From positions 2,266 through 66,265 of the forward strand of contig JAQXAY010000148.1 of NCBI GenBank assembly GCA_029252685.1: 64,000 bases of DNA, read 5' to 3'. The notes below the pieces were generated by a model that saw only the letters and a program-made list of their open reading frames with translations, made no database searches and was not told the DNA's origin. The position numbers were made by a program, and so were the translations under genes. Each line of letters starts with the position of its first letter. Position 1 is the first letter of the stretch. Positions 25,787-59,646 of the stretch are shown here, piece by piece. Source of the DNA: Saprospiraceae bacterium (GTDB lineage Bacteria > Bacteroidota > Bacteroidia > Chitinophagales > Saprospiraceae).

Positions 25787-28111
25787 TTAACGAACGATCA
25801 ATAATTTCCCTGTTGTAGTTCTAGGTTTGTCAAAATTCTCATCTGAGCTTACAAAGATTAGGTAAACACCAGTCTCTGGTTTTCTTCCTTTAAGATCTCT
25901 GCCATCCCAGACCGCTTGTCCACCCAGGGCAATGGTCTCGTAGACTAATTTACCATCGACGGTTGTTATCTTTATTCTGCTATTTTCGGATACTCCTCGT
26001 ATGGCAATAGGACCATCATAGTCTGGCCTAACAGGGTTCGGAAATACTTCGACTTCACTGTGGAATTCTCCTCCATCTACTGCTTCGCCACGAATAATCA
26101 AGATGCCTTCACTGGTTCCTATATATGCTTCTCCATTTAGGGAGTCAAATTTTATGAGCTTTATACTGTTTGAAAAGAGAGGGCTATTATCAATGTCTAG
26201 TCTTAATACTTGGTTTTCGCCAGATTCTGATTGAACAAAAATTCCGTTATCGGTTCCGAACCATTTTCGATTAGCTCCATCTATTCCGATGCAGTTTATA
26301 TTTTCAGTTTCGAGTAGATAGGCGCCAATATTGTCTGTTTCTCCAATCCTAAGTGAACCCTGACAACCGGATTCTTCAAAAATATTTGATGCACAGTCAA
26401 AAACAACAGGACCTTCCTGTGTTCCTACCCAAACATCACCATCCTTATCAACAGAGATACAGTTTACTGAATTTGTAGGTAAATTACTGTTGTTGGTATT
26501 TATGATCCAGGATCTATCATCTGAGGTACTTAATGGATCTTCGCCAGAATCATAGACCAACACTCCATTACTGCTCCCTCCAATAACAAACCACTTGTAA
26601 CCATTTTGATCAATGGTCATAGAGAGTAACTGTTTACTTGGAAATAAAAAGTTTTGCCATTCACCACCAGCTGTCAAAACAGAAACAGGATTGTTAGCGC
26701 CATAATTAGAAACCCATAAGTTTAGGTCATCATCAAAGCCTAAATCTGCAATTCTTGTCCTTGTTGGATCCCCAGGAATGTTTCCAAGACTTGAATTAGC
26801 ATCATTGAATATGTTCATCTCGTCTGCTTGGCGATCAAAATGTACTAATCCATCTAAATATGATCCAAAATATATATCATTCGTTATGGGATGCACCTCG
26901 ACTGAACTTATGTCTGCCAATCCATCTAGATTATCATATCTATTGGAGAAATATTGTCCCCAAGTGCCATCTACATAGCCTAGTAGTCCACTAAAGTTGA
27001 ATAGATAATCATAGTTTACTCCATAGCCTCCTGGTGCAATCCATATTTCTTCTCCGTTGAGTTCAAGATCAAATACTCCCTTGTCCAATATATCATTTGA
27101 AAAAATGAATTTACAGGAATAGTTACCATCTGTATCGGGTTCAAGGTATCGAAGCGGTCTAAAGTTATCACTGAGCCAAATATTTCCAGCTGCATCAGCA
27201 ATAGCATTTATATTTTGACCGAAACAAGTTTCAGAACCCAACTTAATATCTCTAAAGTCGTCTGTGTCTGTTTGGAGATATAGTGGTGCTTGGCAGAATT
27301 GATCGACACATCCATATGCTACAAGCAGTTTGTCATAAGCACTATTGATATAAACAGGAAAAAAGTTATCGTCTTCTAACACTTTTTCAATTGTAACTTC
27401 GTCATAGCTATATACTGCCTTGTTGATTCCTAGGTAAAGCTTCCCTGCGTGGCTGTTAAGTGCATATGATTCATAGGCAGCAGGCAGTTCATCGTTATCG
27501 AGGAAGGTCCATGTATCTACGTTGTCTATGTTAGGATTGTCTCCAGGAGAAAAGAATATACCCTCATTCGTTGCAATGTAGATCTGATCATTAAAGACAC
27601 AAGCACTATATATATTTATACCTAACTTCCTTGCGGTAAACGAAAACTCTTCGTTCGCAATATCAAATCGTGTAAGCCCGAAATTGCCAGCAATCAAAAC
27701 CCCACCTGCTCCATCTAAGCTTACAGCATTTACAGCTTTTACACCTTGTGTGAAATTAAAGTTTTTGAGGTCAAGGTTAGCACGAATACCTTCTGGGCCA
27801 ATCATGTCAATTATAAGCGATTCATAAATAAGAACAAGGTTCTCAGTTTGTTCATCATAGATGCTATGTTGAATATTGATATCACTGAGGCCATCCACTC
27901 TACTCAATCTAGTTTTTGACTTATTGGACTTGTTTAGTATCATAAGTCCAATGTTTGACCCTATGAAAACATTTTCACTGTCTTGAGTAATTGATACACC
28001 AACATTATAGGGTACCATTGCTTTCCATTCACCGATTCTCAATTCTGACTCCTGTGCGAATATGGAAATAGAAATTAATAGTATTGGAAATATGTAAAAT
28101 AGTCGCTTCAT
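25787..28111 (-). CDS. porZ: PorZ-like T9SS component (double beta-propeller protein with C-terminal domain)
   Basis: 774 aa, similar in size to P. gingivalis PorZ. Has a signal peptide, two-component-regulator-propeller-type repeats throughout, and the tail VFPNPVRPDYDGPIAIRGV...GVYLIFV...GKLLIVR. Confidence 0.6.
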   Translation of the reverse strand: MKRLFYIFPILLISISIFAQESELRIGEWKAMVPYNVGVSITQDSENVFIGSNIGLMILNKSNKSKTRLSRVDGLSDINIQHSIYDEQTENLVLIYESLIIDMIGPEGIRANLDLKNFNFTQGVKAVNAVSLDGAGGVLIAGNFGLTRFDIANEEFSFTARKLGINIYSACVFNDQIYIATNEGIFFSPGDNPNIDNVDTWTFLDNDELPAAYESYALNSHAGKLYLGINKAVYSYDEVTIEKVLEDDNFFPVYINSAYDKLLVAYGCVDQFCQAPLYLQTDTDDFRDIKLGSETCFGQNINAIADAAGNIWLSDNFRPLRYLEPDTDGNYSCKFIFSNDILDKGVFDLELNGEEIWIAPGGYGVNYDYLFNFSGLLGYVDGTWGQYFSNRYDNLDGLADISSVEVHPITNDIYFGSYLDGLVHFDRQADEMNIFNDANSSLGNIPGDPTRTRIADLGFDDDLNLWVSNYGANNPVSVLTAGGEWQNFLFPSKQLLSMTIDQNGYKWFVIGGSSNGVLVYDSGEDPLSTSDDRSWIINTNNSNLPTNSVNCISVDKDGDVWVGTQEGPVVFDCASNIFEESGCQGSLRIGETDNIGAYLLETENINCIGIDGANRKWFGTDNGIFVQSESGENQVLRLDIDNSPLFSNSIKLIKFDSLNGEAYIGTSEGILIIRGEAVDGGEFHSEVEVFPNPVRPDYDGPIAIRGVSENSRIKITTVDGKLVYETIALGGQAVWDGRDLKGRKPETGVYLIFVSSDENFDKPRTTTGKLLIVR

Positions 28112-49742: not shown

Positions 49743-52700
49743 ATGGTACGTTATTTACTCATAACCCTGTCTTTTCTTCTCCTAGGATCCTTTGGAGCTG
49801 CTGCCCAGGGTACCCTTCAGGGAAAGGTGACAGAGAATGAATCAGGGTTAGGCGCCATCGGCGCTACGGTATTAGTCAAAAGAGGCGGTGTCCAGATTAC
49901 TGGGGGCGTGACTGATTTTGATGGGAACTATTCTATTCCCAATCTTGATCCCGGAACTTATGATGTGGAGGTTTCCTATGTAGGTTTTGCATCATCAAGA
50001 ACAACAGGAGTAGTTCTTTATGTGAACAGAATTGTTAAACTTGATGTATCTCTTGTTCCGGATTCAGAAGTATTGGATCAATTCGTCGTAGTGGGCTACA
50101 AAGTACCACTGATCGAAGTTGATAATACAACTGGAGGTAAGACGGTAACAGCTGAAGAGATTGCAAATCTTCCTGGTAAATCCATTGGAAGTATTGTATC
50201 TACTGTTGCAGGTGTCGCATCTGTTGATGGTAATGTCAACGTAAAGGGATCTCGTTCCAATGCAACCGATTATTACGTGGATGGTATTCGCGTGAGTGGT
50301 TCATTACCTCCACAATCGGAGTATGAGCAGATTCAGGTATTGACGGGTGGTATTTCCGCTCAATACGGTGATGTAACAGGTGGTATCATCTCGATCATCA
50401 CAAAAGGACCTCAGAGTAATTATTCTGGTAGTGTGGATTTAGAGACAACTTCTCCTTTTGATAATTATAACTATAATCTTGCTGCTGCAAGTATAGCTGG
50501 TCCAATTATCAAAAAGAATGATAAATCTATACTTGGTTTCCGTATTTCGGGACAATATAGATATGAAGATGATAATAATCCTCCTCAAGGAGTTTATTAC
50601 AAAGCAACAGACGCAAAAATAGCTGAGATTGAGGATAATCCAGTTGATAATATTGGAGGTATTCTTCGTCCTACTGCAAATTCAATGAATGCGCAAGACG
50701 TCGAAGCATTGGATTACAATCCTAATTCAGAAATAGAGGATATGTTCTACACTGCAAAATTGGATTGGCAGGTTTCAAAGGGTATTGATGTTACCGCGTC
50801 AGGTTCATTCAGAAAGAACAAAAACAGATTCCTACCAGGAACAAATGATAATGGTAATAGTCGTTGGATTCTTTTTAACTCTCACAACAACCCATATTCT
50901 GATTTCCAGAATTACCGTGCTAATTTTAGATTGAGACACCGTCTTGGTCAGACTGATTATACATCGGCAGGGGAGGGAGATACGAAAAGTGCTGTTCAGA
51001 ATATTACTTACATCCTTCAGGGTGGTTTTGAGCGTTCTAACAGATTTAATTATGACTCAAGACATGAAGATAGATTCTTTGATTACGGATATGTTGGACA
51101 ATTTGAATATAGTTTTGATAATGCGCTAGGTCTTCCTTTTGATAGAGAAAATCCAGCGGACTATCCATTCTTCCTAGAGCATAGAGGTTTCTCTGAGACG
51201 CTTACAGGGTATACACCAGCTGGAATTAATCCAGTTTTGGAAAATTATAACGCAGATGTTCCAGAAGGATCTATTGAATCTGCATATTTGATCAGGAATG
51301 GTTTCCAGAGTAATACACTTACAGAAATCTTCAATGGCCTTCATACCAATGCAGGTGCTGTTTACAATAATTATACTAAAACAGAGAGTGATCGTATAAC
51401 TGCTCAAGCGAATGTATCTTTCGAGATTGTTCCAAGAAAAAATTCTGCAAACAGACATAACATCAAATTTGGTGCTATGTACGAGCAACGTACTTCAAGA
51501 AGATGGGATTTAGATCCTATAGCTCTTTGGCGAATTGCTGAACAACAAGTAAATCGTAACATCATAGGTGTAGATACATCGATGATCGTTGGAGATTCTC
51601 TCGTTGAACAGACAGGTGAGCTTATTCCTATTTACGGTAAAACAACTGTTGATTTACTGGGTAACTCATTTTATAAAGAGATTCGTGAGTCATTCGGAAT
51701 TCCATTAACTGATTTCGTAAATGTACATGGATTTAGTCCTGACCAATTGTCAATAGACATGTTCTCTTCCTCAGAGCTTACTACTGAGGATATCTTGAAT
51801 TATTATGGTTATTCTTATACAGGTGAGAAGAAGAACTCAACTTTTGATGACTTCTTCACAAATACTGATGAGAACGGTCTGAGAACATTCGATGTTCCAG
51901 CATTTACACCGAACTACTTTGCTTTCTATGTGGAGGATAAATTTAACATCGATGACATTTACTTTAGCTTTGGTCTTCGTATGGATCGTTTCGATGCAAA
52001 CACGAAAGTGGCTAAAGATTTGTATGTCTTAGAAGATGTTTATTCTGCTGCTGATTATCATGCACAATTTGGAGGTGAAGCTCCATCTACTGTAGGTGAT
52101 GATTCTAAGGTATATGTAACCAATATAGAGCAACCACAAGTTGTAGCATATAGAGATGGTGATGCATGGTATACATCAGGGGGTACTGAGAGTACAGGAC
52201 CTCAAATCTTCGGTGGTCAGACTGTACAGCCGATGTATGTTAATCCTGACGTATCGATCAACTCTCCTGAATTCGATCCGTCGACTTCATTTGTAGATTA
52301 CGTACCACAGGTGAATTTCTCACCTCGTCTTGCATTTTCATTTGCGATTTCAGATGTTGCAAACTTCTATGCACACTATGATGTGATGGTTCAGCGTCCA
52401 GCTTCAAATAGCGTATTTACTCCATTGGATTATTACCTATTCTACGAAGGAGGAACACTAAAGAACAATCCAAATCTTAGACCAGAGCGTACTATTGATT
52501 ACGAAATTGGTTTCCAACAGAAACTTAATGATCGTTCATCAATCAAACTTTCGGCTTATTACAAGGAGCTAAGAGATATGATCCAGTCAAGACAATTGAC
52601 TCAGGTTGCTATCCTTGGTCAATATACAACTTATGATAACCTTGACTTTGGTACTACCAAAGGTTTCACATTCTACTATGACCTTCGTCGTACGAAGAAT

Positions 52701-53357
52701 ATTCAAATGCAGTTATCATATACCCTTCAGTTTGCTGATGGTACTGGTTCAGATGCTAACTCAACTCGTGGTTTAGACTTTAGAGGAGTTCAGCGTTCAC
52801 TATATCCACTTAACTTTGATGAGCGTCACAGATTCGGTTTGAATCTAGACTACTCTTACGGAGAAGGAAAGAAATATAATGGTCCAGTATTATTCGGAAG
52901 AGACATCTTTGCTAATGCAGGTCTGAATGTTCAGATGAATGCAGTATCAGGTCGTCCGTATACGAAGAAACTTCAGCCAACTCAATTTGGTGGAGACTTT
53001 ACACTTGGATCTATTAATGGTGCAAGAAAACCTTGGACATTCCAATTGGATTCAAGATTGATGAAAAATTTCTCTATTGCAAGGGAAAATGGTTCAAGCC
53101 TGAACTTCCAGGTTTACCTAAGGGTATCAAATATCTTGAACAGAAGAAATGTACTAAATGTATTTACGGCTACAGGTGTGGCGGATGATGATGGTTATTT
53201 GGCATCTGCTAATGGTCAGTCTGCATTGACTGCAATTGGTAACGATCCAACACTATCTGAAACAAGTTATATTGCTGCATACAATTGGCGTATGTTGAAT
53301 CCTGACTTCTTTACACAGCCGAGAAGATTCTATTTAGGAACAGTTTTCTCATTCTAA
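49743..53357 (+). CDS. Oversized TonB-dependent-receptor-like outer-membrane barrel (CarboxypepD_reg-like domain, plug, very large barrel)
   Basis: 1204 aa with a signal peptide and an N-terminal Ig-like domain (GKVTE...GATVLV...TDFDGNYSIPNLDPGTYDVEVSYVGF). The plug region is VVVGY...GKTVTAEEI...VNVKGSRSNATDYYVDGIRV...LTGGISAQYGDVTGGIISIITK. A long amphipathic beta region ends in the beta-signal YLGTVFSF. Confidence 0.85.
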   Translation: MVRYLLITLSFLLLGSFGAAAQGTLQGKVTENESGLGAIGATVLVKRGGVQITGGVTDFDGNYSIPNLDPGTYDVEVSYVGFASSRTTGVVLYVNRIVKLDVSLVPDSEVLDQFVVVGYKVPLIEVDNTTGGKTVTAEEIANLPGKSIGSIVSTVAGVASVDGNVNVKGSRSNATDYYVDGIRVSGSLPPQSEYEQIQVLTGGISAQYGDVTGGIISIITKGPQSNYSGSVDLETTSPFDNYNYNLAAASIAGPIIKKNDKSILGFRISGQYRYEDDNNPPQGVYYKATDAKIAEIEDNPVDNIGGILRPTANSMNAQDVEALDYNPNSEIEDMFYTAKLDWQVSKGIDVTASGSFRKNKNRFLPGTNDNGNSRWILFNSHNNPYSDFQNYRANFRLRHRLGQTDYTSAGEGDTKSAVQNITYILQGGFERSNRFNYDSRHEDRFFDYGYVGQFEYSFDNALGLPFDRENPADYPFFLEHRGFSETLTGYTPAGINPVLENYNADVPEGSIESAYLIRNGFQSNTLTEIFNGLHTNAGAVYNNYTKTESDRITAQANVSFEIVPRKNSANRHNIKFGAMYEQRTSRRWDLDPIALWRIAEQQVNRNIIGVDTSMIVGDSLVEQTGELIPIYGKTTVDLLGNSFYKEIRESFGIPLTDFVNVHGFSPDQLSIDMFSSSELTTEDILNYYGYSYTGEKKNSTFDDFFTNTDENGLRTFDVPAFTPNYFAFYVEDKFNIDDIYFSFGLRMDRFDANTKVAKDLYVLEDVYSAADYHAQFGGEAPSTVGDDSKVYVTNIEQPQVVAYRDGDAWYTSGGTESTGPQIFGGQTVQPMYVNPDVSINSPEFDPSTSFVDYVPQVNFSPRLAFSFAISDVANFYAHYDVMVQRPASNSVFTPLDYYLFYEGGTLKNNPNLRPERTIDYEIGFQQKLNDRSSIKLSAYYKELRDMIQSRQLTQVAILGQYTTYDNLDFGTTKGFTFYYDLRRTKNIQMQLSYTLQFADGTGSDANSTRGLDFRGVQRSLYPLNFDERHRFGLNLDYSYGEGKKYNGPVLFGRDIFANAGLNVQMNAVSGRPYTKKLQPTQFGGDFTLGSINGARKPWTFQLDSRLMKNFSIARENGSSLNFQVYLRVSNILNRRNVLNVFTATGVADDDGYLASANGQSALTAIGNDPTLSETSYIAAYNWRMLNPDFFTQPRRFYLGTVFSF

Positions 53358-53376
53358 TTGACAAAATAAATTGAAA

Positions 53377-56300
53377 ATGATGAAACATAAATATTGGTTA
53401 TCAGCTCTCTTGATGTTCTCGTTCCTTGTTGGAATGCAGGCGCAGGAAGAATGTCTGAAGCCTAAAGCCCAAATTGATCAGGGGGTTAATCGTCTGACTC
53501 AGGGTAAAGTTAATAATGTAAGGGCTCGTCTAAGAACCGGTGGTGATAACTGGTGGGATGGCTCTGGTGATGGAAAATACGTAGTACCGGCTGTTGCTGC
53601 AGGTGAAATCGAGGTATCTTCGGTATTTGCAGGTGGTGTATGGCTAGGAGGATTTGATTCAGGTGGTAATCTAAAACTTGCTGCTCAAACTTACGGATCT
53701 TCTCAAGGTAATACGGATTTTTACAATGGTCCATTGAATGATTCAGATGGTACCACTGAAAAGGAAACATGTGAAGATTGGGATAGATTCTTCGAAGTAT
53801 ATGCTTCAGAGATTGATGATCATATTGCTCTTCTTGCAGAAGCTATAAATGGTGGAACTTACGAGCAAGATCAAATTCCTTTCGGTGTAAAATACTGGCC
53901 TGCAAAAGGTAATCAGTACTTCGCTTCATACTATGGTTTTGCGCTTCCTGACAATGAGCAGGGGCTTGCATACTTTTATGATGCAGATGCAGATGGTTCA
54001 TATGAACCTCTGAACGGTGACTATCCTGTAATCCGTGTAAGAGGTTGTGAAGAGCCTCAATATCCAGATCAGATGATCTACTGGATTTATAATGATAACG
54101 GTGGTATTCACTCAGAAACGCAAGGTGATGCTATTCAGATGGAAATTCAAGTTCAGTCTTTTGCTTATGGTACAAATGACCAGGTAAATGACATGACTTT
54201 CCAAGCTTATCGTTTAATTAACCGTGCAATTGATGAAATTGATTCTACATACTTTGCAATGTGGGCTGATATAGATCTAGGTTGTTATACGGATGATTAT
54301 ATTGGCTGTGATACAGTTCGTTCTCTTGGATATGCATATAATGCAGATGAAGAAGATGGTACTAATGGTATTACATGTCTGCAAGGTGTACCAACTTACG
54401 GTAATGAGGTTCCAATGATTGGGATTGACTACTTTAGAGGACCTTTAAAGCCTATTTTTGATGCCGAAGATAATATCATTGGTGAGGAAGAATTAGGAAT
54501 GTCTTCATTCGCTGTTTACAACAACGGTGGAGTTGGTGATCCTCCTGTAGGTACGACAGATCCATCTCAGGATTTTGAATACTATAACTACCTTTCTGGT
54601 TCATGGAGAGACGGAACCCCAATTCAGTTTGGTGGTGATGGATACCAAACTGGAGGTGAAGAGGTAGATTATGTATTTTTTGATGAACCAAACAATGGTG
54701 AAGGTTGGTCAATGTGTACAGAAACACTTCCTTCTGATTACGATAGACGTCAGCTTCAGGCTTCAGGTCCTTTTAGACTTCTTCCGGGTGCTGTTAACGA
54801 ACTAATTGTAGGTGTAGTTTGGGTACCAGACATGACTTACCCTTGTCCAGATCTTAACAGGTTCTTTAAAGCGGATGATTTTGCTCAAGGACTTTTTGAT
54901 AGTTGTTTCGATATTCTTGATGGTCCAGATGCACCGGATGTAGATCTTGTGGAGCTTGACAGAGAGTTGGTGATGATACTTACAAATGACAAATTGACTT
55001 CAAACAATGCATTTGAGGCATATACTGAGGATGATCCAACAGCTCCTGCTATTCCTGGTATTGATCCAGCATATAAGTTTGAAGGATACCTAGTATACCA
55101 AATTCCAAGTCCAAATGATGTAGCTGATCTTCAAGATCCTGAAAAAGCTCGTTTGATTTTGCAGATGGATGTAAAGAATGGAATCTCTACAATTTATAAT
55201 TGGAGTAGTGAATCTATTGCATATCCAGATGGAACTACGGATGAAGTTTGGTTCCCTACTGTACAGGTAGAAGGATCTAATAAAGGTATTGAGCATACAT
55301 TTAAAGTAACTAACGATGCATTTAAATCGGGTAATGATACACGTTTGATCAATCATACGAGGTATTACTACAAGGTTGTAGCATACGGATATAATAACTA
55401 CGAAGAATTTAATGAAGACCTTGGTGAAGGCCAACGTCGTCCATTCATCATTGGTCGTAGAGGTGGTTCTCCATTTACTGCAATTCCAAGACCAATTGTT
55501 GATCAGACGCTTAATTCAAATTATGGTGACGGTGCTATCGTTACACGTTTGGATGGTGTCGGTGTTGGATCTAACTTCCTTGATATCTCTGATGAGTCAA
55601 GAGATCAGATTCTAAATGGTGAATTCGATGGTTCAATTACGTACAAAGAAGGTGGCGGTCCAATCTCTGTTAAGATTTTCAATCCGCTAGAGGTAATAAA
55701 TGGATCTTATGAACTTAGGTTTAAGGATTCAGACCAAAATGATGACTCTTTAGATGAGGATGCAGTTTGGGAACTTGAAGACCTTGGAACTGGTGAAATC
55801 ATTGCTTCAGAAACTTCAATTGAGTTACTAAATGAACAAGTATTTGGTCAGTATGGATTCTCTATTGCTATAGAGAATGATGAGGATCTATTCAATTCAG
55901 CAAGCCCTGACGGAGCAGTTGGTTCAGAAGTTGTTTATTCTGATGTTACTGGTGCAGATTGGTTTGATGTAGTTAAAGATGAAGAAGATTTCGGAATTCA
56001 GGCTTCCTTTATTTCAAGTACGTTTGATTACGTAAATCCTGAAGAAGGATCTAACGTGTTTAATATTGATCCAAACAATACACTTGGTTCTATGGCGGAT
56101 GGTTTCGTGCCATTCCCTCTAGCAACTAATGATTATACGACTGATCCTACAAATCCAGCTGCTGGACCTGTTTTGACTCCAGGTTGGACTAAAGTAGGTG
56201 CAAGTACTTTCTTCAACAACAACTTTAACCTTCCTCAAATCATGGGTAACCTAAACAATATTGATATTGTTTTCACCTCTGATAAGAGTATGTGGTCAAG

Positions 56301-57381
56301 ATGTATCGTTGTAGAAACAGCAAACCCTGGAATGACATCAAACTTCCCATCTATTGAGAACCATGCACAGATGATGCTTAGAGGTTCAACATCTGTTGGT
56401 AAGTATGATAGTGATGAAGATGGAAAAGCAGATACTGATACTTCTGATGCACCAACTGGTAAAGGATGGTTCCCTGGTTATGCAATTAATGTTGAAACAG
56501 GAAAACGTGTAAACATCTTCTTCGGAGAGAACTCTTCATTCAGTCAGTCTCCGCTTAAAGAATTCTTCCCAGATGAAGATTCTAAAACGGATGATATGAT
56601 GTTTAATCCATCAGATGAGACATTACTTGAATTCCAAGGTGTTCAATTTGGTCAAGCAAACCTTTATTGTGGTGGGCAGCACTTCGTTTATGTAACTAAT
56701 ACAGAATATGATGGCTGTAACGCACTTTATGAAGCGGCTAAGAACTTGACCCCGAATAGTGCTTACACCTTCTATTTGGCATACATTAGAAATATAGTTT
56801 GGTCTGGATTCCCGATTCTTAAATCTGGGGCGCGTCTAGATCCTCTTGGATCTGGAGAGTCTGGCCTTATACCAAATGATGTAACTGTTAAGTTGCGTGT
56901 TACGAGTCCTTACGCTGTAGAGACTGGAACTGGTGTTCGTAATGGTAATCCAACTTACCAATTCGATATAGCAGGTAAAGCGTCAACGGACCTTACATCA
57001 GACGAGGTTGAGTCTGCGTTAGATATGATCAATGTAGTTCCTAATCCTTACTACGGATTCTCTAATTACGATTCAAATAACTTCAACAATACAATTAAGA
57101 TTACAAATCTTCCTGCAACATGTGTAGTATCTATATACTCACTAGATGGTAAATTTATCAAAAGATTTAACCGTGCGGAGAGATATACTACGCCTTCAGG
57201 AACGAACAGAGGACTTCAGTCTGCACAATATGCTCCAGACGTTGAATGGGATATGAAGAATAATCAGAATATTCCAGTAGCGGGTGGTGTTTACTTGATC
57301 CATGTGGAAGCGGAAGGTCTTGGTGAGCGTGTAATTAAATGGTTCGGTACAAACAGACAGTTTGATGCTACCGGATTATAA
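53377..57381 (+). CDS. Giant acidic secreted protein of unknown function with T9SS-type C-terminal domain
   Basis: 1334 aa from the ATG at 53377 (the track starts at TTG 53371), beginning 19 nt after the receptor stop. Signal peptide LLMFSFLVGMQAQ. No catalytic motif is recognised. The C-terminus VVPNPYYGFS...ITNLP..CVVSIYSLDGKFIKRF...WDMKN...PVAGGVYLIHVEAEG resembles a T9SS/FlgD-Ig-like sorting domain. Confidence 0.8.
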   Translation: MMKHKYWLSALLMFSFLVGMQAQEECLKPKAQIDQGVNRLTQGKVNNVRARLRTGGDNWWDGSGDGKYVVPAVAAGEIEVSSVFAGGVWLGGFDSGGNLKLAAQTYGSSQGNTDFYNGPLNDSDGTTEKETCEDWDRFFEVYASEIDDHIALLAEAINGGTYEQDQIPFGVKYWPAKGNQYFASYYGFALPDNEQGLAYFYDADADGSYEPLNGDYPVIRVRGCEEPQYPDQMIYWIYNDNGGIHSETQGDAIQMEIQVQSFAYGTNDQVNDMTFQAYRLINRAIDEIDSTYFAMWADIDLGCYTDDYIGCDTVRSLGYAYNADEEDGTNGITCLQGVPTYGNEVPMIGIDYFRGPLKPIFDAEDNIIGEEELGMSSFAVYNNGGVGDPPVGTTDPSQDFEYYNYLSGSWRDGTPIQFGGDGYQTGGEEVDYVFFDEPNNGEGWSMCTETLPSDYDRRQLQASGPFRLLPGAVNELIVGVVWVPDMTYPCPDLNRFFKADDFAQGLFDSCFDILDGPDAPDVDLVELDRELVMILTNDKLTSNNAFEAYTEDDPTAPAIPGIDPAYKFEGYLVYQIPSPNDVADLQDPEKARLILQMDVKNGISTIYNWSSESIAYPDGTTDEVWFPTVQVEGSNKGIEHTFKVTNDAFKSGNDTRLINHTRYYYKVVAYGYNNYEEFNEDLGEGQRRPFIIGRRGGSPFTAIPRPIVDQTLNSNYGDGAIVTRLDGVGVGSNFLDISDESRDQILNGEFDGSITYKEGGGPISVKIFNPLEVINGSYELRFKDSDQNDDSLDEDAVWELEDLGTGEIIASETSIELLNEQVFGQYGFSIAIENDEDLFNSASPDGAVGSEVVYSDVTGADWFDVVKDEEDFGIQASFISSTFDYVNPEEGSNVFNIDPNNTLGSMADGFVPFPLATNDYTTDPTNPAAGPVLTPGWTKVGASTFFNNNFNLPQIMGNLNNIDIVFTSDKSMWSRCIVVETANPGMTSNFPSIENHAQMMLRGSTSVGKYDSDEDGKADTDTSDAPTGKGWFPGYAINVETGKRVNIFFGENSSFSQSPLKEFFPDEDSKTDDMMFNPSDETLLEFQGVQFGQANLYCGGQHFVYVTNTEYDGCNALYEAAKNLTPNSAYTFYLAYIRNIVWSGFPILKSGARLDPLGSGESGLIPNDVTVKLRVTSPYAVETGTGVRNGNPTYQFDIAGKASTDLTSDEVESALDMINVVPNPYYGFSNYDSNNFNNTIKITNLPATCVVSIYSLDGKFIKRFNRAERYTTPSGTNRGLQSAQYAPDVEWDMKNNQNIPVAGGVYLIHVEAEGLGERVIKWFGTNRQFDATGL

Positions 57382-57390
57382 TAAAATTGT

Positions 57391-57408
57391 GGGGAGCTCA
57401 AGCTCCCC
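57391..57408 (+). promoter_or_regulatory. GC-rich intercistronic stem-loop without U-tract
   Basis: ggggagctcaagctcccc is a perfect palindrome (6-7 bp G/C stem). It lies 10 nt after the 1334-aa gene stop and 35 nt before the next ATG. It is followed by ccaacttt, so it is not a canonical terminator. Confidence 0.4.
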
Positions 57409-57442: not shown

Positions 57443-58492
57443 ATGAATAAAATAATAAACTATATAGTAGCCTTCTTTTTGGTTCTTGGTTTCATGCCTG
57501 ATGCTCAGGCAGGTAACCCGGATCGTCAGGGGGAGGCAGGTTTTGCCCAGTTACTATTGGTTCCATATGCGCAATCAGCTGGTTTGAGTGCAATGAACAC
57601 AGCTTTTGTATCTGGTGTGGAATCATTTGGTGTAAATCCTGCAGGTTTGGCTTCAGTTACAAACCTTGAGATAGGCGTTCATCAGGCTCAGTACCTAGTT
57701 GGAACGGATATCAAATTAAATGCCTTTGGTATGGTTACCAAGTTGAAGAATGGTGGTGCACTTGGTGTCTCATTGAATAATGTAGATATGGGTGAAATCG
57801 CAAGAACAACTTCGGATCAGCCAGGAGGTACTGGAAATACATTTTCTCCTTCAATTTTTTCTTTGAATATTGGCTATGCTAAATCATGGGATGAGAAAAT
57901 TTTTGTAGGAGTTAACTTCAAAGTAGCTTCTGAGCGCGTTGAGGATATGTCTCTTTCTACATTTGCAATTGATGCAGGTGTTCAGTACAAGTCCGGTGAA
58001 AATGATCGTTTTCGTTTTGGAGTTGCTTTGAGAAACATTGGAGCTCCAGCAGCTTTCGAAGGAGAGGGACTTATTTTTATCTCTACAGTACCATTCGAAG
58101 GAGGTACATTTACGCAGACTACAACTCAGCGTTCTTCAAGAGTAGAACTTCAGTCGGCTCTTAAGTTAGGAACATCTTATGATGTTATCACTGGTGTTAA
58201 TACACTTCGTGTACTTGCTAACTTTACGTCTAATGCCTTCTCCCGTGATCAGATCGGTGGAGGTATTGAGTATCACCTTAAGGATATATTTGTACTTCGT
58301 GGTGGATACCAATATGAATTGGATCAGATAGATTCTGAGTTGCCAATTTATACAGGTGTTTCTGGAGGTGCAACATTTAACTTTAAGTTAGGTAAAAGTG
58401 TAGATGCAGCCCGTGTAGGCTTAGGATATGCTTACCGAATGACAAGTAAGTTCAATGGTACACACAATGTGGGTGTAACATTGGAACTATAG
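57443..58492 (+). CDS. PorV/PorQ-family (FadL-like) outer-membrane beta-barrel protein
   Basis: 349 aa with a signal peptide. The N-terminal motif GEAGFAQLLLVPYAQSAGLSAMNTAFVSGVESFGVNPAGLA is characteristic of PorV/PorQ-type proteins as I remember them. The rest has an alternating beta-strand pattern. Confidence 0.7.
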   Translation: MNKIINYIVAFFLVLGFMPDAQAGNPDRQGEAGFAQLLLVPYAQSAGLSAMNTAFVSGVESFGVNPAGLASVTNLEIGVHQAQYLVGTDIKLNAFGMVTKLKNGGALGVSLNNVDMGEIARTTSDQPGGTGNTFSPSIFSLNIGYAKSWDEKIFVGVNFKVASERVEDMSLSTFAIDAGVQYKSGENDRFRFGVALRNIGAPAAFEGEGLIFISTVPFEGGTFTQTTTQRSSRVELQSALKLGTSYDVITGVNTLRVLANFTSNAFSRDQIGGGIEYHLKDIFVLRGGYQYELDQIDSELPIYTGVSGGATFNFKLGKSVDAARVGLGYAYRMTSKFNGTHNVGVTLEL

Positions 58493-58516: not shown

Positions 58517-58547
58517 AGGCTGACTCATTGAGAGTCAGCCTTTTTTA
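58517..58547 (+). terminator. Strong intrinsic terminator closing the receptor / giant protein / PorV-like unit
   Basis: Perfect 10-bp stem aggctgactc/gagtcagcct with a 5-nt loop and a T6 run, 25 nt after the stop. Confidence 0.85.
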
Positions 58548-58618
58548 TTTTAATGAATTAGATTAAATAGAAATAAGATTAATTTGATAAAACCAAAGAA
58601 AAAAATTAAATTTGTTTA

Positions 58619-58657: not shown

Positions 58658-58777
58658 CTAAACTAGATGGCGATCCCGCTGTCGGCTGTTTCCTCTCCAA
58701 AACATTATTGGAATGACTGGCTTGCTAAGTTTCAAAGAACTTAGGGTTTAGAATTTTTTAATTTAAAATTGAAGAAT

Positions 58778-59251
58778 ATGTCTAATGTAACCTATTTGTC
58801 GCAAGAAGGATACGATAACCTTGTGGCACAGTTGGACGATCTTAAAACACGTGGTAGGACTGAAGCTGCTAAAGCAATTGCCGAGGCAAGAGAAAAAGGA
58901 GATTTGTCTGAAAATGCAGAGTACGATGCTGCTAAAGACGCGCAGGGTTTACTAGAGTTAAAGATCAATCAGTTAGAAACTGTAATGGCTACTGCCAGAG
59001 TACTTGATACGAGTCAGTTGGATAATTCAGAAGTACGAGTACTTTCTAAAGTGCGTATTATGAATTTGAAAATGAAAAAAGAATTCACTTATCAGCTTGT
59101 TGCAGAGTCAGAGGCTAATCTTAAGGAGAAAAAGATCTCAATAGGCTCCCCTATTGGTGAAGGTTTATTAGGTAGGAAGGTTGGAGATGTTACGGAAATA
59201 ACTACTCCAGGTGGAATGATGAAATTTGAAATCCTTGAAATCACAATCTAA
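58778..59251 (+). CDS. greA: Transcription elongation factor GreA
   Basis: 157 aa from the ATG at 58778 (the track starts at TTG 58769). Has the coiled-coil N-terminus with the DLSENAEYDAAK motif and a C-terminal FKBP-like domain. Confidence 0.93.
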   Translation: MSNVTYLSQEGYDNLVAQLDDLKTRGRTEAAKAIAEAREKGDLSENAEYDAAKDAQGLLELKINQLETVMATARVLDTSQLDNSEVRVLSKVRIMNLKMKKEFTYQLVAESEANLKEKKISIGSPIGEGLLGRKVGDVTEITTPGGMMKFEILEITI

Positions 59252-59646
59252 TGGCTGGTATCTTTTCAAAGATTATAGCAGGTGAAATTCCCTGTTACAA
59301 GATCGCAGAGTCTGAAGATTATTTCGCATTTCTAGACATTCGTCCTTTGCAAAAAGGGCATACTTTAGTGATCCCGAAAAGAGAAATTGACTATGTCTTT
59401 GATTTGGAAGATGATGCATTAGCAGGTCTTATGCTTTTTGCAAAACGCGTAGGAAAAGCAATGAAGCAGGTCATTGATTGTAAACGAATAGGAGTATCAA
59501 TTATCGGATTAGAAGTACCACACACGCATATCCACTTAATACCCATCAATTCCTTAAATGATATGGATTTTACAAATCCTATTGATGGACTTGAACCCAA
59601 AGATTTCCAAATAATAGCAGAACAAATTGCCGAAAGGTTTGAATAA
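59251..59646 (+). CDS. HIT-family nucleotide hydrolase/transferase
   Basis: 131 aa with the histidine triad HTHIHLIP. Its ATG overlaps the greA TAA (TAATG). Confidence 0.9.
   Translation: MAGIFSKIIAGEIPCYKIAESEDYFAFLDIRPLQKGHTLVIPKREIDYVFDLEDDALAGLMLFAKRVGKAMKQVIDCKRIGVSIIGLEVPHTHIHLIPINSLNDMDFTNPIDGLEPKDFQIIAEQIAERFE

Follow-up and report, generated by a model that had tools for sequence, protein, structure and literature searches.

The 64,000-nucleotide stretch of Saprospiraceae bacterium DNA analyzed here (contig JAQXAY010000148.1, positions 2,266 to 66,265; hereafter the window) carries on its forward strand a compact three-gene unit, the central member of which encodes a 1334-residue acidic protein, predicted to be secreted, that is referred to below as the target. 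As a first-pass annotation made from the letters of the sequence had stated, this is the longest open reading frame (ORF) of the window; ORF calling places its ATG at 53377 and its stop at 57379–57381, and a start at the in-frame TTG at 53371 would lengthen the product by two residues. The gene is present once in its own 3.4-Mb genome, and the predicted 145-kDa product begins with a Sec-type signal peptide in which inspection of the sequence found no lipobox cysteine. It is preceded by the gene for a TonB-dependent-transporter-like barrel and followed by that for an outer-membrane barrel of the PorV/PorQ family (Table 1). The conservation of this trio across phyla, together with an atypical, PorZ-like C-terminal domain (CTD) on the target, shifts the likely biology of the latter from that of a secreted cargo to that of a surface-complex subunit. 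Specifically, we tentatively favor a reading in which the target is exported by a type IX secretion system (T9SS), is stabilized by calcium, is held by a retained tail on its private downstream barrel, and acts as the capture partner of the transporter.

Table 1. Features of the three-gene unit and of the target protein, in window coordinates (residue numbers are those of the target)
Feature	Position	Strand	Basis or remark
Upstream partner, 1204-residue TonB-dependent-transporter-like barrel	49743..53357	+	Pfam CarboxypepD_reg 52.9 bits, Plug 35.1 bits
Target gene, 1334-residue acidic protein, predicted secreted	53377..57381	+	Single-copy; ORF read from sequence
Putative Sec-type signal peptide, residues 1-22 (MMKHKYWLSALLMFSFLVGMQA, then QEE)	53377..53442	+	Read straight from sequence
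N-terminal conserved domain, residues 23-515, compact elaborated beta-supersandwich	53443..54921	+	AlphaFold model
DxDxDG calcium-loop-like motif D202-A-D204-A-D206-G207, within the FYDADADGSYEP stretch	53980..53997	+	Alignment
Invariant acidic block W296-x-D298-x-D300-L-G302-x3-D306-D307-x2-G310-x-D312	54262..54312	+	Alignment
Invariant D456-R457-R458, then S-G464-P-F466-x-L-x-P-G	54742..54789	+	Alignment
FN3-like beta-sandwich with insertion, residues ~516-705 (approximate)	54922..55491	+	All-beta in model
Middle beta domain, residues ~706-870 (approximate), Saprospiraceae-specific insertion	55492..55986	+	Model and alignment
Mixed alpha/beta domain, residues ~871-1215	55987..57021	+	Model pLDDT mostly 73-95
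Divergent T9SS type A-like (PorZ-like) CTD, residues 1216-1322	57022..57342	+	hhalign against canonical CTDs
Family-specific extension FGTNRQFDATGL, residues 1323-1334	57343..57378	+	Past the region aligning to canonical CTD
GC-rich perfect 18-nt palindrome GGGGAGCTCAAGCTCCCC in the 61-nt gap	57391..57408	.	No T-run on + strand
Downstream partner, 349-residue PorV/PorQ-family outer-membrane barrel	57443..58492	+	NF033709 PorV_fam 128.5 bits (cut-off 90)
Intrinsic terminator, stem GGCTGACTC/GAGTCAGCC then TTTTTTATTTT	58517..58550	+	Strong; closes three-gene unit

The upstream product, whose gene ends 19 nt before that of the target, bears a CarboxypepD_reg extension at its N-terminus, has a Plug domain as well as a TonB-box-like segment (QFVVVGYKVPLIEVD), and ends in ...VFSF. 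Its CarboxypepD_reg and Plug matches both exceed the Pfam cut-offs, and partial matches to NCBIfam TonB-receptor models were also obtained. Twenty upstream partners from several phyla share a VVVxYxxPLIxxD segment and an aromatic residue at the terminus, and the retention of Plug, TonB-box-like segment and terminal aromatic residue by the transporter partner fits an energized importer. The barrel has the generic features of a TonB-dependent receptor (Plug, CarboxypepD_reg) but gives no match to the SusC/RagA model TIGR04056, and two homologous upstream partners match this model at positions 2–207 only, with 55–94 bits against a cut-off of 368. The downstream product, encoded 61 nt after the target, falls below the equivalog cut-offs for PorQ (75 of 220 bits), PorV (59.6 of 250) and PorV2 (38 of 325). 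Since the genome encodes canonical PorU–PorV, PorQ, PorZ and PorV2 elsewhere, the downstream barrel represents an extra, context-specific fourth paralogue.

When the three proteins were searched by tblastn, the order transporter–target–PorV-like barrel was found in nearly all of approximately 100 loci with enough flanking sequence. The lineages that carry the trio include Saprospiraceae, other Bacteroidia, Rhodothermia (Rubrivirga), Ignavibacteria, KSB1, and a metagenome-assembled genome (MAG) labeled Cloacimonetes, and the three proteins diverge at similar rates, each retaining approximately 45% identity across the family. We therefore consider it probable that the target forms a functional unit with both barrels. 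That the gene order is kept across phyla while the neighbors beyond it differ from locus to locus also tells against the target being an ordinary T9SS cargo, by which we mean an adhesin or released protein whose tail is cleaved, whose anchor is the usual one, and whose neighboring barrels are unrelated to it. An ordinary cargo would be in keeping with a tail homologous to type A CTDs, with the large number of such cargos encoded by the genome (approximately 120), and with the presence of an FN3-like domain, as found in many adhesins. However, the tail is atypical and unusually conserved, and the barrel is an additional paralogue confined to this context; we thus regard this explanation as highly improbable.

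With respect to the tail, a profile of the last 125 residues of the family (136 sequences) was compared by hhalign with 40 canonical CTDs from the same genome, which gave a probability of 97.7% (E 1.7e-12) over template columns 12–87 of 91. This homology over the whole CTD identifies the tail as a diverged type A CTD, which in the target carries a clade-specific insertion of approximately 16 residues. One homologue clears the TIGR04183 cut-off of 23 with 25.1 bits, and 6 of 30 show weak matches to PF18962. The nearest curated relative of the tail is the CTD of PorZ: residues 1211–1312 match profile positions 666–742 of NF052228 (PorZ) with 15.9 bits against a cut-off of 260 (E 0.003), and a search of the PDB with a 30-sequence profile returned only the PorZ tail (E 0.09; a weak match to the CTD at residues 662–757 of 5m11) and a titin FN3 domain (E 2.3). 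The target is nonetheless neither PorZ nor PorU, candidates that we rejected as the genome has its own copies of both and NF052228 matches only the tail.

The tail also differs from canonical CTDs at its very end. The first-pass annotation had the CTD ending in GGVYLIHVEAEG, a motif that is indeed present at residues 1303–1314 but is followed by 20 more residues, the last 12 of which (residues 1323–1334) lie past the canonical CTD alignment. Canonical CTDs of the same genome end approximately 19 residues after the GxY motif, whereas the target continues for 29. The extension was found in all 30 aligned homologues, where the final residue is L, F or Y. Within Saprospiraceae the CTD reaches an identity of 0.65 and is as conserved as the N-terminal core; among distant members its identity is 0.51, and no other domain of the target scores higher at that distance. 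Conservation of this kind, along with the extension, is more in keeping with an interaction domain that is retained than with a signal that is discarded.

The export machinery itself is encoded by the genome, in which SprA, PorU, PorV, PorQ and PorZ all score above curated cut-offs; the genuine PorZ lies within the window at 25787–28111 (453.5 bits). Approximately 120 above-cut-off matches to TIGR04183 were found in the 3.4 Mb, and in a sample of 301 near-complete genomes from the phylum, SprA was present in all 86 that carry the family, while the family occurred in none of the 64 that are SprA-negative. Export of the target by the T9SS is, in our judgment, likely, and no evidence to the contrary emerged. 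As a separate observation, some 120 type A CTD proteins amount to an unusually heavy investment in T9SS cargo, and a PorV2-type barrel (NF052325, 391 bits) is encoded elsewhere in the genome near giant CTD-bearing ORFs of 2275 and 1337 residues (C262:774-16638), a second and different PorV-paralogue neighborhood.

Docking of a retained T9SS tail on a barrel of this kind has been described. The CTD of PorZ is retained and bound to PorQ (PMC10202324), and cognate PorV-like barrels have been proposed to shield CTDs from cleavage (PMC10202324). The PorZ–PorQ and PorU–PorV pairs of Porphyromonas gingivalis (PMC10202324, PMC5121618) resemble the trio in combining a large surface protein, a type A-like CTD and a PorV-family barrel of the 14-strand type; in both pairs it is the retained CTD that provides the anchor. 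The likeness extends to the nearest curated relatives, in that the equivalog model closest to the trio barrel is PorQ (75 bits) and the curated match closest to the target tail is the PorZ CTD. In contrast to PorZ and PorU, however, the body of the target is neither a double beta-propeller nor a peptidase, and unlike PorZ–PorQ, the target–barrel pair is genetically joined to a TonB-dependent transporter and the tail bears its 12-residue family-specific extension. A cargo-specific barrel encoded beside a T9SS cargo and needed for its surface anchorage is also found in the SprB–SprF type B CTD pairs (PMC9143113). The principle is the same as in the trio, but the target tail is type A/PorZ-like, the barrel belongs to the PorV/PorQ rather than the PorP/SprF family, and a transporter gene is part of the unit. 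An accessory subunit of the BAM complex was also considered and rejected, as papers on Bacteroidota BAM list no such component.

From these features we infer the following route. The target would cross the inner membrane by Sec, by means of its signal peptide, and the outer membrane by the T9SS, by means of its divergent type A (PorZ-like) CTD. Rather than being cleaved and swapped for a lipopolysaccharide anchor, the CTD would be retained and would dock the target on the private PorV/PorQ-family barrel encoded directly downstream, as PorZ docks on PorQ and PorU on PorV. The target could then act as the extracellular partner of the TonB-dependent transporter encoded directly upstream, with its N-terminal domain, of carbohydrate-binding-type fold and bearing an Asp/Arg cluster that is invariant, capturing and perhaps processing a polymeric substrate for import. 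If the trio is a physical complex, two textbook pictures would be broadened: TonB-dependent transporters could gain their surface partners in a way that differs from SusD-type and Slam-type lipoproteins, and PorV-family barrels could act as private docking sites beyond the core attachment complex of the T9SS. A broader generalization is somewhat less likely than not: that many FCB-group lineages, Saprospiraceae, Ignavibacteria, Rhodothermia and KSB1 among them, have in a so far undescribed manner given a TonB-dependent transporter a large, T9SS-delivered, non-lipoprotein partner with an uncleaved, specialized CTD seated in a private PorV-family barrel, and that the resulting three-protein secretion–import machine presents an N-terminal domain belonging to a new calcium-dependent binding or catalytic fold family.

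The target belongs to a large family. It numbers at least 6,465 clusters at 50% identity, the yield of an exhaustive phmmer search of 1.84 billion representatives with residues 23–720 at E ≤ 1e-3; of these, 1,678 reach E ≤ 1e-30. When 5.8 billion proteins were searched, the top ranks were filled by full-length homologues (approximately 1315–1385 residues) that share 45–56% identity with the target and belong to Saprospiraceae, Lewinellaceae, Haliscomenobacter, Phaeodactylibacter, Aureispira, Neolewinella and Membranihabitans. More distant relatives of approximately 1000–1200 residues and 22–30% identity occur in Ignavibacteria, Melioribacteraceae, Rhodothermia (Rubrivirga), KSB1 and the Cloacimonetes-labeled MAG. 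A clear member (E ≤ 1e-15) is present in 86 of the 301 sampled genomes, and most Bacteroidia in this sample outside Saprospiraceae and a few other families have none. Database labels for the homologues read only 'hypothetical protein' or 'T9SS type A sorting domain-containing protein'.

No Pfam family matches the target at E ≤ 0.01, and no PDB entry matches it by sequence search. When Pfam and NCBIfam were run on the target, 9 distant homologues, 30 alignment members (E ≤ 1) and 6 long relatives, no model covered the body of the target or of the homologues tested, and matches were limited to CTD-type and Ig-type domains apart from inserts in two of the long relatives. Literature searches on PorV, PorQ, TonB-dependent transporters, T9SS and the relevant taxa found no description of the family or of the trio, and a search by accession number found no paper on the orthologue from Haliscomenobacter hydrossis DSM 1100 (F4L5P7, WP_013766420). 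The initial impression of a real but uncharacterized family is thus upheld by thousands of clusters, by invariant residues, and by the lack of any Pfam or NCBIfam model for the body. The family, which has no solved relative, comprises thousands of members in several phyla abundant in soils, sediments, wastewater and oceans, and cultured carriers of the gene include Haliscomenobacter hydrossis, Neolewinella and Membranihabitans marinus.

Residue conservation was counted in a 136-sequence alignment that spans Saprospiraceae to distant phyla. Thirteen residues of the N-terminal domain are identical in all 136 sequences (D240, E256, D298, D300, G302, D306, D307, D327, G355, D456, R457, R458 and G464), and a further set (W296, G310, D312, N322, G349, D351, P465 and F466) is kept in 128–135. 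Because homologues across phyla are elsewhere only 22–30% identical, the conservation of these blocks far exceeds chance. The motifs singled out by the first-pass annotation are all located in the target, namely the calcium-site-like stretch FYDADADGSYEPLNGDYPV (residues 200–218), the Cys/Asp motif WADIDLGCYTDDYIGCD (residues 296–312) and the GPF.L.PG motif (residues 464–471), and their conservation, a check that it had proposed for the first two, was counted in the same alignment. In the acidic block, the five residues D298, D300, G302, D306 and D307 are invariant, and W296 (128 of 136), G310 (133) and D312 (134) nearly so; in the N-domain model the block falls at the end of strand 266–277 and in strand 285–290 (model numbering). 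The GPF.L.PG motif retains P465 in 134 and F466 in 133 of 136. WxDxDLG..DDxxGxD and DRR with GPF.L.PG, kept as they are across the alignment, can therefore serve as family signatures. The calcium-loop-like motif is somewhat looser: D202 is present in 127 of 136 homologues and G207 in 85, while either D or N occupies position 204 in 125 and position 206 in 121, such that most members keep D-x-[DN]-x-[DN]-G. Calcium binding by the target is a reasonable inference from these motif patterns.

Structural models were built with AlphaFold2 from a 60-sequence alignment, one covering residues 23–1222 (predicted local distance difference test score, pLDDT, 87.1; predicted template modeling score, pTM, 0.70) and a second covering residues 23–530 (pLDDT 92.5, pTM 0.91). 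The N-terminal domain, at 490 residues, carries nearly all of the invariant acidic residues. Foldseek matched it to PDB entries with a probability of ~1.0, a template modeling (TM) score of 0.24–0.36 and 9–10% identity over approximately 300 columns, the partners being the N-terminal domains of GH94 phosphorylases, GH116, GH65, GH161, dextran dextrinase and an exo-arabinanase. The likeness to GH94 cellobiose phosphorylase, GH116 beta-glucosidase, GH65, GH161 and dextran dextrinase (8ho8, 7dks, 9ju0) is one of fold, the matched domains being of the galactose-mutarotase-like supersandwich type. A GH94/GH116/GH65-type enzyme was rejected, as the (alpha/alpha)6 catalytic barrel is absent and a succession of 12 long helices is not seen in the model. 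Searches against Pfam, PDB sequences and, for both models, Foldseek recognized no catalytic domain in the target, in line with what had first been noted, and the Foldseek matches were confined to the non-catalytic N-terminal beta-sandwich of the enzymes concerned. A confident match to a characterized family over most of the protein was sought by both profile and structure searches, and none was found; with Foldseek yielding only fold-level matches to the N-terminal domain, no characterized domain family covers most of the target.

The N-terminal domain is also found on its own. Short paralogues of approximately 550 residues in other genomes consist of this domain (28% identity, motifs kept) followed by a canonical Por_Secre_tail above the Pfam cut-off (L108 3480-10230 in genome G127, L107 7541-9208 and L109 6780-8423), with four of them in tandem in one genome, and no transporter or PorV-like barrel was found near them. 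The occurrence of the domain with only a canonical CTD indicates that it is an autonomous secreted unit, and it is the long form of the family that the special tail and the private barrel accompany.

These data bear on whether the target is instead a surface enzyme, in which D240, E256, D298, D300, D306, D307, D312, D327, D456, R457 and R458 would form a possibly calcium-dependent active site and the protein would represent a new hydrolase or lyase family that cuts a surface polymer and feeds the adjacent transporter. Thirteen residues identical in every aligned sequence, mostly Asp, Glu and Arg at strand ends, are what such a site might look like. The short paralogues, with a canonical and presumably cleaved CTD, no transporter or barrel, and in one case a tandem array of four, are arranged as secreted enzymes often are, and T9SS-tailed GH13 and GH31 genes lie near some loci (close to the trio in one sampled context). 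However, none of the invariant positions of the N-terminal domain is His, Ser, Cys, Lys or Tyr, the searches returned no known catalytic fold or family for it, and the supersandwich is the non-catalytic part of the enzymes to which it was matched. Moreover, patterns of the DxDxDG and DD..G.D kind usually mark structural calcium sites, and the short paralogue does not keep E256 or D351. On this evidence we consider the enzyme explanation unlikely, though not negligible, while on the narrower question of whether the target binds rather than catalyzes we regard the two outcomes as evenly balanced. The 13 invariant residues of the N-terminal domain give any search for a new ligand-binding or catalytic activity a well-defined starting point.

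In terms of known surface partners of transporters, a close parallel is provided by SusC/SusD (RagA/RagB) and the surface glycan-binding proteins of Bacteroidota polysaccharide utilization loci, in which, as in the trio, the gene for a CarboxypepD_reg-type transporter adjoins that for its surface-exposed partner. Unlike SusD, the target is predominantly beta, lacks a lipobox, does not match PF07980 and is not of the TPR type; it is also three times larger, would be exported by the T9SS rather than as a lipoprotein, and comes with a third gene, that of the barrel, which would be needed as well. SusD and the family are negatively associated across the 301 genomes (odds ratio 0.40, uncorrected for phylogeny), with 34 genomes encoding both, 52 the family only, 133 SusD only and 82 neither. 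The genome studied here itself encodes at least five SusD homologues.

Several points weigh against the target being a T9SS-exported capture partner held on its barrel by a retained tail. The T9SS tail reported by the first-pass annotation holds in so far as its family profile aligns with canonical CTDs and the genome has a T9SS, but it is missed by the curated type A models: TIGR04183 and PF18962 do not match it, and a scan of its own genome with TIGR04183 gave 128 matches (E ≤ 0.01) of which it is not one, a scan in which the PorU tail scored 30.7 bits and the PorZ tail 22.3. The co-occurrence with SprA is only consistent with T9SS dependence, and is not independent proof of it, since the SprA-negative genomes are essentially one family. 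Simple replacement of SusD is rejected in view of the 34 genomes with both, the 82 with neither, and the several SusD homologues present here. The fold match of the N-terminal domain is weak (TM 0.24–0.36), and the matched domain has not in itself been proven to bind; an active site would be just as good an explanation of the invariant Asp/Glu/Arg cluster. Finally, in Saprospiraceae the trio adjoins greA and a HIT-family gene, not sugar-utilization genes, and its surroundings would suit a housekeeping role in the envelope as well as they suit nutrient capture.

The surroundings of the trio are relevant to this last point. Downstream of it, greA is found in 78 and a HIT-family gene in 53 of the approximately 100 loci, class-level relatives included (58769-59646 in the window), and this adjacency in many loci gives the trio a fixed chromosomal position beside housekeeping genes in this lineage. 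Elsewhere it adjoins a ribosomal-protein operon or an ATP synthase operon with lipopolysaccharide genes (lipid A acyltransferase and heptosyltransferase), and in an Ignavibacteriae MAG two full copies stand in tandem directly after the ribosomal-protein/rpoA/L17 operon (L104 7290-22133). A polysaccharide utilization locus was considered as the setting of the trio and rejected, as neither the window nor most of the sampled loci have this organization.

Such contexts would suit a module for envelope architecture or outer-membrane maintenance, in which the target is a constitutive coat or spacer anchored on two barrels and nutrient import plays no part. The fixed position upstream of greA and the HIT-family gene and the envelope and housekeeping neighbors seen elsewhere are consistent with this, as are the single-copy gene, its presence in 6 of 6 sampled Saprospiraceae genomes and at least 80 Saprospiraceae/Lewinellaceae loci, and a window in which no regulator or catabolic gene is linked to the trio. 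Yet the upstream barrel keeps a Plug domain and a TonB-box-like segment, hallmarks of an energized importer; the copy number in other phyla, from one to several per genome, is that expected of nutrient systems; and the module, absent from most Bacteroidia, cannot be essential for the envelope in general. A purely architectural role therefore strikes us as quite unlikely.

The remaining domains of the target are less conserved and less easily placed. The FN3-like region has a weak match to the titin FN3 profile (E 2.3) at its GPDAPxV...ELD start, and Pfam fn3 reached E 0.0012 in one of 30 homologues, with no match in the target and the PF00041 cut-off not reached; FN3-type matches of the 1200-residue model in a viral structure library were judged to be noise. 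The earlier statement that no adhesin repeat could be named accordingly holds at the level of Pfam, where the target has no match, but has to be tempered by the FN3-like sandwich seen in the model. The middle beta domain is 18% identical to distant homologues, and the mixed alpha/beta domain, at 13%, is the most divergent part of the protein, although blocks such as FPGYAIDVETGKRLNIFFGENS are common to distant homologues; whole-model Foldseek searches, in which this domain was not searched singly, gave no PDB or viral fold match for it. Among the long relatives, one of P0360 and P0316 (1687 and 1553 residues) contains a BNR/Sortilin-type propeller segment and the other a Big_9/cadherin-like domain, and from these inserted modules the region behind the FN3-like domain appears to be a variable cassette.

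The composition of the mature protein was compared with that of ORFs of at least 300 residues from the same genome. Enrichment in D, G and N, as first described, was confirmed (D 9.1% versus a genome mean of 6.4%, G 10.1% versus 7.1%, N 7.2% versus 5.9%), while that claimed for E was not (6.5% versus 6.6%). With 205 D and E against 80 K and R, the isoelectric point is 4.08 and net acidity stands at the 92nd percentile among the long ORFs of the genome; the acidity of the target is marked, though not extreme.

Beyond the target itself, two MAGs, one of KSB1 and one of Melioribacteraceae, both encode a 454-residue GWxTD-domain protein at a distance of one or two genes downstream of the trio (L022 14605-15969 and L106 5365-6729). 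The stem of the terminator that closes the unit in the window was also picked up by a hairpin scan, where it is listed on the minus strand. The palindrome between the target and barrel genes may act in RNA processing or stability and in this way set how much of each product is made relative to the other.

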